A stretch of 33,753 nt of DNA, taken from positions 1 through 33,753 of IMG/VR virus record IMGVR_UViG_3300022407_001572. One strand, written 5' to 3'. Source of the DNA: a virus (lineage: Duplodnaviria > Caudoviricetes). Numbering within the stretch: the stretch's first letter is position 1; every line of letters starts with the position of its first letter. Shown piece after piece: positions 14,218 through 33,753 of the stretch. The notes under the pieces are model-generated. The model saw nothing but the letters and a program-made list of their open reading frames with translations. It searched no databases and was not told the DNA's origin. Both the position numbers and the translations under genes were made by a program.

Positions 14218-14310
14218 TCATAATCCGAGTAACTTCAAAATAAATATTGTAATAACCAGCACCAAAGCGGCAAGGAAAGTAGATAGCCGGTCTTTGTCTC
14301 GCTGGGTCAT
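14218..14310 (-). CDS. Small membrane peptide (30 aa)
   Basis: MTQRDKDRLSTFLAALVLVITIFILKLLGL; ATGA overlap with the MTase stop. Confidence 0.5.
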   Translation of the reverse strand: MTQRDKDRLSTFLAALVLVITIFILKLLGL

Positions 14311-15182
14311 ATTATTGCTATCGCCTTAAATATCTCATAAGCTACTTGTGGAACTATGGCGTTTCCTCCGGCTTTGATTGATTCGCTTCGCCACTTAGGA
14401 AAGGTAATAGAGTCCAGTTTTCCGGAAAGTCCATCATCTCCATTACAAATCGTGGATTGAGTTGGGAACTTTTCCCAGGTTGATGGAAGGCATCCGGCAA
14501 TGAGTTCGTTTCTGTTCTTCCTGATTGTTTCAGTGCTTCCGTTGATCTCGCACCCTTGTAATCTCGTGTCGCTGGTGTTGGTAAAAACATTTTCCAAATT
14601 TCCGGATTGTAAACTACTTGATGTAGACTTAGTCCGTGATTTATTCCTTCCTTGTAAGATGTTCTTAATGACCCTTTCCTGTCTTGTAAATCTGGTGTTG
14701 GCAGCAATAAACCAAATTCTATCCCTTCTGTGTGGAGCGTTGACGGCACAAGCTGGAAGTAAAAACGGTGTGACTTCGTAGCCTTGAGCTTCCAGGTCAG
14801 CCTGCACTTCATCGAAAACCATTCCCCCGTTCCAATTAGTGAGGCCGCGAACGTTCTCGCCCACAACGTAGGTCGGTTGAATTTCTCGAACTGCTCTAAG
14901 CATCTCCGGCCAGAGGTGGCGGTCATCTTCCTTTCCAAGTCGCTTCCCCGCTGCGCTGTATGGTTGGCATGGAAATCCACCTGTAAGGATGTCGATGGTT
15001 CCTCTGTGAATAGTGAAGTCTGTCTTTGTGATGTCATGGTATGATGTGGCTTTAGGCCAGTAATGTTTTAGTACTCTTTGTCCAAAAGGATTCCACTCGC
15101 AATGAAATACGTTATCCCAACCCATCCACTCGGCAGCTAGATCGAATCCACCTATTCCGGAAAAAAGGCTACCGTGCCTCAT
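14307..15182 (-). CDS. dcm: DNA (cytosine-5) methyltransferase, alpha polypeptide (motifs I-VIII and X, lacks IX)
   Basis: SLFSGIGG (I), GGFPCQ (IV), ENV (VI), PHRRDRIWFIA (VIII), GNAIVPQVA (X). Confidence 0.93.
   Translation of the reverse strand: MRHGSLFSGIGGFDLAAEWMGWDNVFHCEWNPFGQRVLKHYWPKATSYHDITKTDFTIHRGTIDILTGGFPCQPYSAAGKRLGKEDDRHLWPEMLRAVREIQPTYVVGENVRGLTNWNGGMVFDEVQADLEAQGYEVTPFLLPACAVNAPHRRDRIWFIAANTRFTRQERVIKNILQGRNKSRTKSTSSSLQSGNLENVFTNTSDTRLQGCEINGSTETIRKNRNELIAGCLPSTWEKFPTQSTICNGDDGLSGKLDSITFPKWRSESIKAGGNAIVPQVAYEIFKAIAII
14354..15037 (-). CDS. C5-MTase beta polypeptide overprinted in the +1 frame (TRD-like repeats plus motif IX)
   Basis: Nested 227-aa ORF with LLPTP..D.KG twice and LNPRFVMEMMDFPENWT (motif IX) at 14411-14461; true start uncertain. 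Confidence 0.75.
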   Translation of the reverse strand: MTSQRQTSLFTEEPSTSLQVDFHANHTAQRGSDLERKMTATSGRRCLEQFEKFNRPTLWARTFAASLIGTGEWFSMKCRLTWKLKATKSHRFYFQLVPSTLHTEGIEFGLLLPTPDLQDRKGSLRTSYKEGINHGLSLHQVVYNPEIWKMFLPTPATRDYKGARSTEALKQSGRTETNSLPDAFHQPGKSSQLNPRFVMEMMDFPENWTLLPFLSGEANQSKPEETP

Positions 15183-16801: not shown

Positions 16802-17171
16802 TTGCGGTGGTTTGGATTAGTTCCTCTCTTTGAAGATTTAAAAAATCTATTGTTTCCGATTGAAACTCTAAGGTGTTGGCTTGCCTCGATGCTTCCACCA
16901 ATTCAAGATCGGATAGTATTTCCTGAAAAGTGTCGCGCCATGATTTTAGGGCGTTTAAGGTGCTTTCGTTGGTTACGGCTACTTTGATACAGAAATCCCG
17001 CAAAGTCTCGTTACGCTCAATCTCTGTACGGTCTGCCGGCCTTGCCGTTGAAAGATACTTGGCTATCCTTTCAATCGTCTTTTGGTTCTGCTTTACTGAT
17101 ATTTCTATCTGGCTGGCCTGATCCCTGAATGATCTACCCAAGTCAAGGTATTTGATAAGTTTATCCTTCAT
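16767..17171 (-). CDS. Hypothetical coiled-coil protein between initiator and helicase (possible loader)
   Basis: ORF track; overlaps both neighbours; function inferred only from position. Confidence 0.5.
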   Translation of the reverse strand: MKDKLIKYLDLGRSFRDQASQIEISVKQNQKTIERIAKYLSTARPADRTEIERNETLRDFCIKVAVTNESTLNALKSWRDTFQEILSDLELVEASRQANTLEFQSETIDFLNLQREELIQTTANEVRQRIKGNS

Positions 17172-17823
17172 TGCAAATTTTTGTTAAGGTGTCTAATTTT
17201 TCCCGTATTAACCAATTCTTGAAGTGCTTTTTTATATCCGACTTCTCGCTTGTAAGGTCGGCCTTGCCCAAAAGAAACACAACCAGTATTTGCATAAGGT
17301 TGACCTTTGTAGCTACCCTCCAGCCTTTACCGGTTATTAACCTATGGCATTCATCAATGTATAGATCGTCTGTTTTAAGTTCTTCAAGGGCTTGTTCTTT
17401 GGATTGGTAGAAGTCATCGGAAAATTTGCGCGGTGTCTTCACCTTCTCTTCTACTTCGTTTCGTTTCGTTTCAGGCGGCCGGTTGCTGTCAACTGTCAGC
17501 GGGTTGTCAGCGGGTTGCGGGAACTTGCTATTCATCTGCCGCAATCGTTGGCCAAAGTTTACTATTTGAACGTATTCTTTGCCATCAATTACATAAACCT
17601 GAATCAATCCAGCGTACTGACATTCATCCCTAAAGACTATAATTTTGTTGAAATTGTAATCCTTTAAAGGAAACAATGCGGCTTTTAATAGCTTTGGGTT
17701 CCCGTAGTAGCACCCGAAGTCATCGGCCTTCATTATCAATCTGGTGAAGAATACCTCCGCACCTTCTGATAGATCATTGACCGTTTCCGATTGTGTCCAG
17801 TCTCTTAATACCCTGTTTGCCAT
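17161..17823 (-). CDS. Phage replication initiator / replisome organiser
   Basis: N-terminal MANRVLRD...LS..AE.FF.RLI..ADDFG...P.LL...LFP domain, low-complexity linker, C-terminal KKHFKNWL domain. Confidence 0.75.
   Translation of the reverse strand: MANRVLRDWTQSETVNDLSEGAEVFFTRLIMKADDFGCYYGNPKLLKAALFPLKDYNFNKIIVFRDECQYAGLIQVYVIDGKEYVQIVNFGQRLRQMNSKFPQPADNPLTVDSNRPPETKRNEVEEKVKTPRKFSDDFYQSKEQALEELKTDDLYIDECHRLITGKGWRVATKVNLMQILVVFLLGKADLTSEKSDIKKHFKNWLIREKLDTLTKICNEG
17455..17521. repeat. Short tandem repeats inside the initiator gene (candidate origin iterons)
   Basis: TGTCAGCGGGT x2 (17494-17515) plus partial TGCGGG; TTTCG-type run at ~17455-17472. Confidence 0.45.
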
Positions 17824-17932
17824 AAACAATAAAGCCTTTACAGGCGTTCGGGTGTCGAGTCCCTACTAACCTATAAAGGCTTTTGATTTCTTGCTGACTT
17901 TTTATCTCGACATCGCCAGCGTGGTAAATGTA
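17824..17932 (-). promoter_or_regulatory. Promoter (TACATTTA) plus structured 5' leader with predicted pseudoknot, before the initiator gene
   Basis: 14-bp stem 17831-17844/17870-17883 (one U-G), AGUA/GAA internal loop, loop CUCGACA complementary to 5' UGUCGAG (17906-17912). Confidence 0.65.
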
Positions 17933-17937
17933 CTAAA

Positions 17938-20103
17938 TTAAATCAAAACAAGCTGCTTTTTTTGCTCAATAGCTGCTTTTAAATTTGCCTTGGCCAGGTC
18001 AAAGTAAGATTCTTTTAATTCAAATCCTATCCCTTTCCTTTCCATTTTTACGGCCTGGTAAACTTCACTACCTATTCCCATGAACGGAGTGAAAACTGTA
18101 TCGCCTTTGTTGCTGTATAGGTGTATCAATCGCTCAATGGTGTCAAGTTGTAAAGGGCAAATATGCTTCTCGTCATTATCTTCTCGACCATTGCGGAAGC
18201 CCTGCAAAGTGTTACCGTAGTCTATGTCCATCCAAACAGGTGATGCGTATTTCTGCCAAAGGTCAACAGGGATATGAGTGTTGGTTACTGGGTTAGTCCT
18301 TTCGCCATCCTTTCTAAATATCATCACGTAGTCAGGAATACCAACACGTGACATAGTGCTATCCTTTTTTACTTGCTTATGTAGCAACCCTAATGCTTTG
18401 GTCCTTTGCATTTCAACAACCGGATCTTTCCATATTGTAACACGTGAAGCATAAACAAATCCGGCATCCTCAAATACTTTTAAAAGCAATCCTGAAAAGT
18501 CACGCAGTCCGATAAATCCATGCTTACCTTTTTGAATAGGTAAGTCCATACAATGAACACACACATTACGTCCTGACATCATTACGCGATACAATTCTTT
18601 TACAAGGAATGAGAACTGGGTTAAAAACTCTTGATAGTCTTTTGAATTACCCATATCCTCAACGTGACTTGAATACGTGTAAAGTTCTGCGAATGGTGGA
18701 CTGAATACAGATAAACCAATTGATTCACTTTCTATCTCAGGAATAAGCTGAACACAATCCCCTCGCTTTATTTGGTACCAGTCGTTTCTTTCTTCGGTAA
18801 TGTCAAATTCGGATGTAGTCATAAGTTGGTTATTTAAGTTTGCGTTTATTGCTTTGGCCATTTCATCCTGCATGATCTTAAATTGATCTTGTTTTCTTTG
18901 GATGGATGCTAGTACGTTTTTCATTGTGTCGGTAGTGATAAGGTAAATAAATACCTCATGCTCTTGTCCGAACCTGTATGATCTACGGATAGCCTGGTAC
19001 AATCCCTCAAAGGAGAAATCTAAAGAGGGGAATATTTGATTGTAACAGTTCTGAAAGTTCATACCGAATGAAGCGATCTTTTGTTTTGTTATAAGAATAC
19101 GGAACTCATTATTTGCAAATCCTAAAAGCTTTTCTTTCTTCCATTGATCCGAATCAGATCCTTTTACTTCGATGGCATCCGGTAATAGTTTTCTAAGATA
19201 CTCCCCTTCTTCATTCTGCTTTATCCATATAATAAAGTTCTCGTTTGGTTTAGAATTAAGTACATCTATAACAGCATCAAGGCGTTCTTTTTTGCTTGCC
19301 CGTAATGCGCTGTTAAAGTTTGTAGCCGAAATGATCGCATCATTAAACAGTTGACCGTTATCCATTTTAGGTGTATTGATTTGTCTCTCAATAAGATTGA
19401 GGTTTGGCAAGGCATAGCCATCCATTTCAAATCCTATATCCTGGGGCTTGTTTAGCATGATTGACCAGGTGCCAACAAACTGATAGAACAATTTAACAGC
19501 ATGGCCTTTCAATCTCCATTTAGCCGTATCTCCTCCATCATGTACAAAGTACATTGCAAGCATTTCATTACGGCTCATTACGTCTAAGAACTCGGAATGA
19601 TTACCTAACTCCATAGGATCGTTGGGGCTTGGTGTAGCCGTACAAGCTAGCTTATACGGTGTCTTTGCAAAACGTTCTAGTATTAACTTCTTAGTTTCGC
19701 CTTCAAAGTTTTTTAGGATTGAGCTTTCATCCAAACAAATACCACCGTATAAACTTGTATCGATGTTATTTAACTGCTCATAGTTATCCTCATCAATAAG
19801 GTCTGCATGAACGTTAAACTTGATAGCCTCGCGCTTGGTTTGTTCAACCACAACCAAAGGAGCAAGTATTAAAACGCGCTTATCGGTTACCTTACTAACT
19901 TGATATGACCATTCAAGCTGCATCAATGTTTTACCAAGTCCACAATCCGCAAAGATGGCATACTTTCCAGCCTTCAATGCTCGCTTAACTATGAACTTTT
20001 GAAACGGAAACATATGCTTGTTTAGCTCCGATTCTTCAATATCAAATCCGCTTAATACATGGCTTTTGTGTTTTTGTTTTAAGAAGTCTTTGTAATCATC
20101 CAT
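17938..20103 (-). CDS. SNF2-like helicase fused to an amino (N4C/N6A, beta-class) DNA methyltransferase (721 aa)
   Basis: DCGLGKT, LDESS, TATPSPND, QAIRRSYRFGQ; then FSPPF (motif IV), HICPLQ, TPFMGIGS (motif I). Confidence 0.9.
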   Translation of the reverse strand: MDDYKDFLKQKHKSHVLSGFDIEESELNKHMFPFQKFIVKRALKAGKYAIFADCGLGKTLMQLEWSYQVSKVTDKRVLILAPLVVVEQTKREAIKFNVHADLIDEDNYEQLNNIDTSLYGGICLDESSILKNFEGETKKLILERFAKTPYKLACTATPSPNDPMELGNHSEFLDVMSRNEMLAMYFVHDGGDTAKWRLKGHAVKLFYQFVGTWSIMLNKPQDIGFEMDGYALPNLNLIERQINTPKMDNGQLFNDAIISATNFNSALRASKKERLDAVIDVLNSKPNENFIIWIKQNEEGEYLRKLLPDAIEVKGSDSDQWKKEKLLGFANNEFRILITKQKIASFGMNFQNCYNQIFPSLDFSFEGLYQAIRRSYRFGQEHEVFIYLITTDTMKNVLASIQRKQDQFKIMQDEMAKAINANLNNQLMTTSEFDITEERNDWYQIKRGDCVQLIPEIESESIGLSVFSPPFAELYTYSSHVEDMGNSKDYQEFLTQFSFLVKELYRVMMSGRNVCVHCMDLPIQKGKHGFIGLRDFSGLLLKVFEDAGFVYASRVTIWKDPVVEMQRTKALGLLHKQVKKDSTMSRVGIPDYVMIFRKDGERTNPVTNTHIPVDLWQKYASPVWMDIDYGNTLQGFRNGREDNDEKHICPLQLDTIERLIHLYSNKGDTVFTPFMGIGSEVYQAVKMERKGIGFELKESYFDLAKANLKAAIEQKKQLVLI

Positions 20104-20224
20104 AAATAAAAATAACCGGTCGGGTTCAAGGTGTCGGCCTCTCCCCCTTCCAGCTCATTTAGTGTTTATTAATCCGCTCCGACAAGCGATAAACAAAGTT
20201 AATAAAAATCCCGAACGTGCCAAA
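20104..20224 (-). promoter_or_regulatory. Promoter (TTTG-N19-TAACTTTG) plus structured 5' leader with predicted pseudoknot, before the helicase-MTase gene
   Basis: -33 at 20221-20224, -7 at 20194-20201; loop CCGACA (20132-20137) complementary to 5' UGUCGG (20179-20184); stems AGG/CCU, GGG/CCC, AGCUGG/CCGGUU. Confidence 0.65.
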
Positions 20225-20257
20225 CACACGCTAAAAATATCGGGGTAGGTTAAAAAG

Positions 20258-22907: not shown

Positions 22908-22996
22908 TTTGGTTGCGTTTAAATCTTACACAAGTCTATGGTAAAGAATTTTAATATCCTAGTTTTATTTTAATTTATTTTAATGTACGTTTGCGT
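22908..22996. promoter_or_regulatory. Divergent promoter region
   Basis: AT-rich; plus-strand TACGTTTG at 22986-22993; minus-strand variant TAGACTTG at 22931-22938. Confidence 0.6.
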
Positions 22997-23158
22997 ATGA
23001 GCAAAAACATAGCAAAAACGTCCAAAAGAGGCCGGAAACCTATCAAAGATAAGGTAGTGCCACTGACGATATTTGTCAAAGAATCTGTAATAATGAAGTT
23101 CGGGAAGGCCGAATTTGCCCGAGCTTACGCTAAACAATGCCTGGAAGAATGGACTTAA
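22997..23158 (+). CDS. Small DNA-binding protein, RGRKP arm plus ribbon-helix-helix-like (53 aa), leaderless; candidate repressor
   Basis: MSKNIAKTSKRGRKPIKDKVVPLTIFVKESVIMKFGKAEFARAYAKQCLEEWT; ATG 3 nt after the -7 box; divergent from the early operon. Confidence 0.6.
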   Translation: MSKNIAKTSKRGRKPIKDKVVPLTIFVKESVIMKFGKAEFARAYAKQCLEEWT

Positions 23159-26884: not shown

Positions 26885-26960
26885 CCAGTAGCTTTGTCCT
26901 GGGGTTGGCTGCTCCCCACAATTAAAGATCTTTAGGCCCTGATTCGTTCAGGGCTTTTTT
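26885..26960 (+). ncRNA. Candidate ~75-nt small RNA antisense to the lysis operon
   Basis: TATATTTG -7 box (26874-26881), GGGG/CCCC hairpin, terminator AGGCCCTGA-TTCGT-TCAGGGCTT-TTTT; no ORF. Confidence 0.55.
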
Positions 26961-32751: not shown

Positions 32752-33753
32752 CTGCTATGTTCGGGTCGTTGTTTGGATCGCTATCTAAAAACAATGCTAT
32801 CTCATCTGATGAAAGGCCAAACTTACCAAGCATTAATTCTGCCTGCTCTCTTGTGATTGTTCCTTTTTCAAAGTCGGCAACATACTTTCTGAGGTTGCTA
32901 AATTCTTTGCGGCTTAACTTGGTAATGCCTGAATTAACAGCCGTTACCGCTGTAGCTGCCTGGACAGTATAGGTCTGCTCCTTTATCTTAAAATCTGATG
33001 CAATAGGCACATCCCAAAAAGAAAACAGGTACTTTAAAACTCTACTAACCGCTGCCCTTTTGTTACGGGTAATTGAGTTAAAATAAATGTAAGCCTGCTC
33101 CATGTTCTGCTGATTGAACATTCCAGTTTCAGGGCGAACCCCTAAAAGTTCCTTAGGCATCGCGTAGTTCTCCATGATTGCAGCCATAGAGGAACTTTCC
33201 GTGTACTGCCATTGAGTATCTACGTTAGTAGGTGAAAGAGTCTTAACCATCTTATCAATGTCAAACTCTCCATCTACTTCAATTCCTAAAATACCATTGG
33301 CACCTGTAGAACCTTTCTTCTTTCTAAGCTCCTCTATAAGATTATTGCGCTCCCCGTTAGCATTGGTAGGAGGTACCGCGATAATTGTAGTAGCCATGAA
33401 CCCATTCTGTAAAGCAGATACTTTGTAAACACCGGCTTCATATTGGGTTTGTGCGTGTTCAAAAACTGGATCAAATGTTGACTTAGGGTACTGTCCTTCT
33501 TCTGGAGTCCAATAGAATATCTGACCTTTGTAGTTTTCAATACCATCGCAGTCGGCTATTTCCTGAGCTACTACTTCTGGATCAGGATTAAAAATATGAT
33601 AAGACACTACCTTTCTAGTGGTATGTTGTGCCTTCATGTGATCTTGTTCCCAGTTGGTAGAGTATTTGATTTCGTCTACTCTACCGCTTTCGTCCGCCAG
33701 TCCAAGCCGGCAATACTCAAAAGGAATGTGATTGATTGAAGCTATCCGATCCT
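32744..33753 (-). CDS. Portal protein, 3' part (second allele; 5' end off the right edge)
   Basis: Frame is open to the window edge; FYWTP..YP, NGFMAT, ELLGV..G motifs; matches the 1-1246 ORF. Confidence 0.85.
   Translation of the reverse strand, partial: DRIASINHIPFEYCRLGLADESGRVDEIKYSTNWEQDHMKAQHTTRKVVSYHIFNPDPEVVAQEIADCDGIENYKGQIFYWTPEEGQYPKSTFDPVFEHAQTQYEAGVYKVSALQNGFMATTIIAVPPTNANGERNNLIEELRKKKGSTGANGILGIEVDGEFDIDKMVKTLSPTNVDTQWQYTESSSMAAIMENYAMPKELLGVRPETGMFNQQNMEQAYIYFNSITRNKRAAVSRVLKYLFSFWDVPIASDFKIKEQTYTVQAATAVTAVNSGITKLSRKEFSNLRKYVADFEKGTITREQAELMLGKFGLSSDEIALFLDSDPNNDPNIADG
32833..33750. repeat. Terminal direct repeat, copy B
   Basis: About 96% identical to 1-918, no indels. Confidence 0.97.

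Follow-up and report, generated by a model that had tools for sequence, protein, structure and literature searches.

Several described leader RNAs bear comparison with the two leaders analysed here. In guanidine-IV (GGAM-1/mepA), hairpin P1 and a terminator hairpin pair through their loops, which gives an ON switch by steric competition; the proposal is that this kiss pulls the linker taut and keeps the outermost pairs of the terminator from forming (PMC7736828, PMC11611296). P4 CI and Gifsy-1 IsrK set a precedent for a short leader-derived RNA that acts in trans on its own transcript (PMC4825925). For the I-complex rep leaders (ColIb-P9 repZ, IncB/K), single loop changes are reported to alter specificity (PMC10724649). 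Finally, DNAVirus_187 (Fremin et al., 2023; PMC10690425) comprises 122 sequences of 49 nt, mostly from freshwater phages and two with a Bacteroidetes host; it lies upstream of DUF1376 (54) and DUF4373 (36) genes, at most 25 nt away.

The leaders lie in the window, by which we mean the whole stretch analysed, a single virus record of 33,753 bases. Its termini (1–918 and 32836–33753) overlap over 918 nt at 96% identity, and because of this overlap the phage assembly is probably circular and complete; the 96% identity may mean that two strain variants have been joined. The promoter type and the relatives among Flavobacterium phages together point to a Bacteroidota host. Both leaders sit in a minus-strand replication module, in the order SNF2 helicase–methyltransferase, initiator, small ORF and DnaB-like helicase (Table 1). 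The earlier note took the phage to have no CI repressor. Among the 46 window ORFs scanned with PHROGs, a scan that extended to 30076, there was indeed no integrase or CI-type match, although a 53-aa ORF (22997–23158, plus strand) provides a weak lead to a small transcription regulator of RHH type. This ORF diverges from the early operon, with −7-like boxes at 22986 (plus strand) and about 22937 (minus strand), and the named Atlas clusters closest to it hold proteins of CcdA/MobC/NikA type (scores 0.84–0.86). Elsewhere in the window, two long overlapping minus-strand ORFs in different frames (14307–15182 and 14354–15037) both match DNA methyltransferase PHROGs, and the strongest simple terminator-like hairpin of the scanned region is found on the plus strand at 26934–26956, between lysis-region genes.

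Table 1. The two leaders and the genes that they precede, in window coordinates; hairpins and promoters are predicted.
Feature	Positions	Strand	Basis
Replication initiation protein gene (AUG at 17823)	17161..17823	−	PHROGs 1408, E 8e-13
Copy 1 U-rich tail, from last G–C pair to AUG	17824..17833	−	sequence
Copy 1 long hairpin P2, with AGUA/GAA internal loop (17867–17864/17849–17847)	17831..17883	−	fold, sequence
Copy 1 kiss segment L2 CUCGACA, P2 apical loop	17853..17859	−	fold, sequence
Copy 1 A-rich linker	17884..17892	−	fold
Copy 1 hairpin P1, 6 bp, 16-nt loop (arms 17920–17915 and 17898–17893)	17893..17920	−	MFE and centroid fold
Copy 1 kiss segment L1 UGUCGAG	17906..17912	−	exact complement of 17859–17853
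Copy 1 predicted −7 promoter box TACATTTA	17925..17932	−	sequence; consensus
SNF2-type helicase fused to N6/N4 methyltransferase	17938..20103	−	Pfam PF01555 (E 1e-19), PF00271; PHROGs 16
Copy 2 U-rich tail up to AUG	20104..20113	−	sequence
Copy 2 long hairpin P2, with purine-rich GGAG/UGAA internal loop; apical loop L2 CCGACA (20137–20132)	20114..20155	−	fold
Copy 2 A-rich linker	20156..20173	−	sequence, fold
Copy 2 hairpin P1, 5 bp; 6-nt loop is kiss segment L1 UGUCGG (20184–20179)	20174..20189	−	centroid fold
Copy 2 predicted promoter: TTTG (20224–20221), 19 nt, then TAACTTTG (20201–20194)	20194..20224	−	sequence

Every feature that the earlier note had listed for the two leaders was found where it was claimed, on the minus strand, and this orientation is supported by folding z-scores of −4.13 (copy 1) and −2.59 (copy 2), against −1.30 and −0.90 on the plus strand; none of 300 shuffles of each leader passed the descriptor. 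In both copies the apical loop of the long hairpin is, as claimed, exactly complementary to the 5′ segment. The pairing had been called pseudoknot-type, a description that needs refining: in the predicted folds a small hairpin, P1, presents each 5′ segment in its loop, and the pairing is therefore better seen as a loop–loop kiss. The compensatory change said to distinguish the copies amounts to a single pair, five kiss pairs being identical in both, and for this reason we drew the evidence for covariation from homologues. The stem closes 7 nt before the AUG in copy 1 (stem end 17831, last G–C pair 10 nt before) and 10 nt before it in copy 2 (stem end 20114, last G–C pair 12 nt before), within the spacing given previously. 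CC..GAAC and the AGUA/GAA internal loop are present as described but proved to be subfamily traits, not properties of the whole family. The AGUA/GAA loop, which by sequence matches the loop-E/sarcin–ricin motif, occurs in copy 1 and its subfamily, recurring in pattern-matched loci and in phage FCV-1; it is absent from copy 2 and from a further subfamily. The copy 1 −7 box ends in A, against G in the consensus. Upstream of copy 2, a nested hairpin on the minus strand (20205–20245, −14.3 kcal/mol) followed by U residues overlaps the −33 element and is possibly the terminator of the upstream operon.

Searches blind to the kiss place both leaders, on sequence evidence, in a widespread family of Bacteroidota-phage leaders that follow one plan: a promoter, the small hairpin P1, an A/U linker, and a long interrupted hairpin, P2, that stops some 11 nt short of the AUG. 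A pattern search of three collections, which fixed only the outer stem and the AGUA/GAA loop and left the kiss free, gave 24 loci. Sixteen of these, among them a record that duplicates the window and a near-identical relative, have a 6–7 nt upstream complement of the free loop, with seven codes, whereas cross pairs between loci reach at least 6 nt in 11 of 334 cases; the other eight reach just 3–5 nt, which looks like chance. Loci L084 and L096 are set apart by a single compensatory pair in the kiss. Homologues of the initiator and of the SNF2-methyltransferase provided 119 distinct upstream regions, 38 of them with a hairpin and U tract before the AUG, and a complement of at least 6 nt was present in 29 of these 38, compared with 116 of 1406 cross pairs (8%). 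The covariance-model search that had been proposed earlier was run with a model of the nested structure only (R2; 17 seeds, two of them spurious, none from the window). Within the window its two best matches were the two leaders (E 0.006 and 0.09), and it found no third copy there. The matches of R2 in 100 other sources have complementary loop columns in 31 of 37 cases, against 46 of 1332 cross pairs (3%); of the misses, four (window copy 1 included) are genuine elements that were misaligned, and two are one plain hairpin. An initiator homologue search gave one near-identical locus. A first, loose descriptor was too noisy (85 real matches against 32–56 shuffled) and was replaced.

An anatomy scan covered 176 loci and the window, nine loci having been left out beforehand (the window duplicate and the eight kiss-less pattern loci). 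It yielded 180 distinct blind candidates, 87 with a complement; 27 of the 87 were dropped because they had no −7 box or A/U linker, some true members among them, and the 60 remaining elements, which are interrelated and come in about half of cases from one initiator family, carry 48 codes. Loop pairs with loop in 46 elements (type I). The other 14 (type II) often lack P1, and their complement sits in a bulge on the 3′ side, beyond a side hairpin. Loops are mostly 7–8 nt and P2 arms about 20 nt long, and the kiss-to-kiss distance is 36–52 nt (43 elements). A strict TAnnTTTG lies upstream of L1 in 44 of the 60 elements, all of them preselected for a loose box, and in 26 of 58 the −7 box has TTG 18–20 nt upstream. 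The code consensus is biased (GUNGCAG), and YUNR U-turns are uncommon (6 and 10 of 46). MFE-based correlations between linker and stem were distorted by spurious A–U pairs and were dropped. In the type II leaders L005, L007, L008, L013, L046, L109, L122 and L124, an unstructured 5′ segment pairs with the 3′-side bulge, and CAUUGCC and CUUUG are common to several type II leaders; type II may be a separate family nearer P4 CI. The loop-E subfamily (L002, L003, L083, L084, L086, L096, L100 and L103) has an extra tetraloop hairpin of 3–4 bp before P1, at the predicted 5′ end of the leader.

That these are cis-encoded, covarying structured leaders before replication genes, as the earlier note held, is backed by covariation among homologues. 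In the 11-sequence subfamily, 77 of 77 cells of the kiss helix are Watson–Crick, with 18 double changes and no G–U, and all helices jointly scored above every one of 500 shuffles and every slid control, by a statistic that ignores kinship. The per-site difference among the eight closest sequences is 0.33 in the kiss, 0.09 in P1, 0.14 in P2 and 0.21 in unpaired positions; among close relatives, mainly one cluster of about nine related sequences, codes diverge by 0.31–0.33 per site against 0.09–0.14 for stems and 0.21 for the linker. Such acceleration is not general, since three loop-E clusters each keep a single code.

Rfam 15, in which P1 C4 is family RF01695, gave no match with E ≤ 5 in the window, and none over the leaders in 18 loci at the gathering score or in 16 loci at E ≤ 1, so the Rfam check suggested earlier turned up no known family. 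The leaders resemble guanidine-IV in that the P1 loop is complementary to that of P2, itself a candidate terminator. They depart in several ways from guanidine-IV: the nucleotides around its kiss are conserved, whereas the kiss here is hypervariable; the leaders have neither conserved ligand nucleotides nor an Rfam match; their P2 is about 20 bp, interrupted, with the AUG 11 nt downstream; they head phage replication and DNA-metabolism genes and not guanidine exporters; and the GGAM-1 lineage table contains no Bacteroidota. With P4 CI and Gifsy-1 IsrK they share a position as leaders of phage replication or early genes and internal complementary segments (PMC4825925). Unlike P4 CI and P1 C4, they have one kiss and lack a seqC-like site downstream, codes are not shared within a genome, and neither a C4 match nor a sign of lysogeny was seen; downstream L1 and extra code copies show no clear excess of the kind that seqA and seqC targets would produce. 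The I-complex leaders are similar in their loop-based pairing before a replication initiator. They differ in pairing loop to downstream sequence where our leaders pair loop to loop, and ours have no enriched antisense promoter, leader peptide or SD (PMC10724649). DNAVirus_187 fits P2 in length and gene context and on these grounds is probably the P2 half of the family; it differs in being an unnamed list entry, too short for both hairpins and marked 'no' for an RNIE terminator, and the main text of its source does not mention kissing (PMC10690425). The supplementary tables of that source hold further similar entries, and some of the leader family may already be listed there, though neither named nor explained. 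We found no published description of the element in the full-text literature, a scope that takes in a minority of subscription journals. Judged by these comparisons of sequence, the leaders are a real, widespread and undescribed family, which can be likened to kiss-gated attenuators and lies outside each family named.

The leaders have a GC-rich stem followed by a U tract, and their U-rich tails resemble the ordinary terminator tails of one Bacteroidota-phylum chromosome, although they are weaker than in 26 reference hairpins: at least four of the first five tail nucleotides are U in 41 of 60 elements against 24 of 26 ordinary terminators, and the median weighted terminator tail score is 3.3 against 4.65. 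A simple terminator scan of the window called neither copy's P2. The stem ends 10–13 nt before the AUG in 47 of 60 elements, a spacing seen in 18 of 93 candidates that lack a kiss and in 1 of 25 ordinary terminators, and P2 would therefore cover positions −12/−13. In Bacteroidia, adenines and low structure are favoured at these positions, and the adenines promote initiation (PMC9976891). Adenine occupies −3, −6, −12 and −13 in 9, 3, 3 and 2 of 35 leader-bearing genes, against 50, 50, 54 and 45 of 84 other homologues, a comparison in which the U filter biases the −3/−6 counts and U-richness and the 84 include some missed members. Start masking would not be universal, because in some members P2 lies 17–25 nt from an A-rich start. 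By a rough ruler (2.8 Å per pair and 6.5 Å per nucleotide), the ratio of linker contour to required span has a median of 1.42 and exceeds 1 in 44 of 45 elements. On this model the ring appears closable in cis, with a taut linker about 70% stretched, and the kiss and the full P2 need not compete, since the ruler lets both coexist.

We tentatively favour a mechanism in which the base of P2 is both a leaky terminator and a cover over −12/−13 (OFF) that the kiss opposes (ON), much as in guanidine-IV though with no ligand involved, a serious possibility though short of a probable one. Each leader would be transcribed from its own predicted promoter as a self-contained RNA, whose P1 and P2 loops would kiss within one molecule and so strain or delay the base of P2. 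That base would be the OFF element and, in read-through RNA, would mask the ribosome-entry positions; kissing would then mean ON, the direction that the guanidine-IV topology suggests. In the most speculative step, a released short leader RNA with its loop free would capture the loops of nascent same-code leaders, and capture would limit expression as genome copies accumulate. Action of the terminated leader in trans is speculation, suggested by the fast divergence of codes (one cluster); it would be the simplest trans actor because the antisense promoter is not enriched and same-locus copies differ in code. We identified no ligand pocket or regulator for the leader family. Extended further, the scheme would make a ligand-free, RNA-addressed copy counter in repressor-less phages: each replication or nuclease gene would have a private 7-nt kissing code, the terminated leader would accumulate with genome number, intercept same-code nascent leaders and shut the gene off, and codes would diverge so as to avoid being silenced by paralogues and by related phages in the same cell. 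In this full form we think it rather unlikely.

Termination might instead be incidental, the kiss and full P2 forming a compact domain 11 nt before the AUG, which would repress initiation or dock on the platform of the 30S subunit. The fixed spacing of P2 and the adenines missing from leader-bearing starts would fit an effect on translation only, as would the 19 of 60 elements with at most three U in the first five tail nucleotides, given that UUU stands right before the AUG in 46 of 60. We nevertheless hold this to be unlikely, because the element is kept despite long A-rich spacers (L030, L033, L050, L104 and FCV-1 35995) and many tails are like those of ordinary terminators. Alternatively, the kissed fold may be static, setting a fixed low dose, protecting the 5′ end or serving as a processing or protein-binding site, with code changes as neutral drift. 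Closure in cis with a full P2 is feasible, the structure is common to unrelated downstream genes, the code consensus is biased, and P2 measures about two helical turns in most members. Neutral drift sits poorly, however, with the best-sampled cluster, in which codes outpace the unpaired linker without G–U intermediates, and we regard a static role as unlikely.

The earlier note likened the leaders to P4 CI or P1 C4 targets, in which one processed RNA would silence several genome targets. Although five nucleotides are common to the two codes of the window, which cross-pair at −6.0 kcal/mol (against −9.0/−7.8 for their own pairings), type II members place the complement in the 3′ bulge, and CI derives from its own leader (PMC4825925), a shared regulator seems very unlikely: codes differ in all four loci with two scored elements, extra code copies number 16 against 20 expected, a downstream L1 copy is seen in 5 of 57 against 3 (6-mer) or 25 of 57 against 18 (5-mer), and the window has no third family copy and no integrase among its scanned ORFs. 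Regulation by an antisense RNA, also raised earlier, that is read off the opposite strand as in I-complex plasmids is highly improbable. A plus-strand TAGCTTTG at 17689 does face copy 1, but no antisense box faces copy 2 among the matches listed, the leaders contain no leader peptide, and an opposite-strand −7 box occurs in 8 of 57 elements against 8 of 84 control homologues and 3 of 57 in the second control.

The leader was also said to gate replication. Replication genes do lie downstream, but other genes are headed too: below the 60 elements we found 28 initiators of several families and two likely ones, 10 SNF2-type genes, three HNH genes, one helicase, one primase, one methyltransferase and 14 small, unknown or cut genes, a tally biased toward initiator-like and SNF2-type genes because the homologue searches were seeded on them. 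Of 64 distinct DUF1376-like initiator homologues, at least 28 bear the leader. It therefore seems to be one of the chief points at which DNA replication is controlled across a large group of phages of Bacteroidota, hosts that do without Shine–Dalgarno pairing. It provides a testable hypothesis of how repressor-less phages dose initiators and toxic nucleases and, if the codes are orthogonal, would amount to a natural RNA-switch library for Bacteroidota. The family can be tested in cultured phages: FCV-1 (KY979235.1) has two copies, ahead of genes at 35995 and 40457, one of them with AGUA/GAA before a NUMOD4–HNH gene, and 65 Flavobacterium phage records carry one copy.

In regions of 8–12 kb from four further cultured phages (Flavobacterium 1/32, Alistipes AS73P1, Bacteroides VA7 and a Porphyromonas phage), no convincing element was seen. 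The pattern scan of GTDB gave five matches, none with the kiss, and R1, a subfamily model, matched none of 151 Bacteroidota-phylum genomes, a search too narrow to be informative (27 candidates scored per genome). R2 produced 12 weak matches in 11 of the 151, which by eye are plain terminators and were rejected as family members. A small sample, 400 kb of the Bacteroidota-phylum chromosome G338, contained no full element; at about 2377900–2379300 of G338:C1 (L199–L200) we observed a regularly repeated palindromic unit that resembles a CRISPR array.
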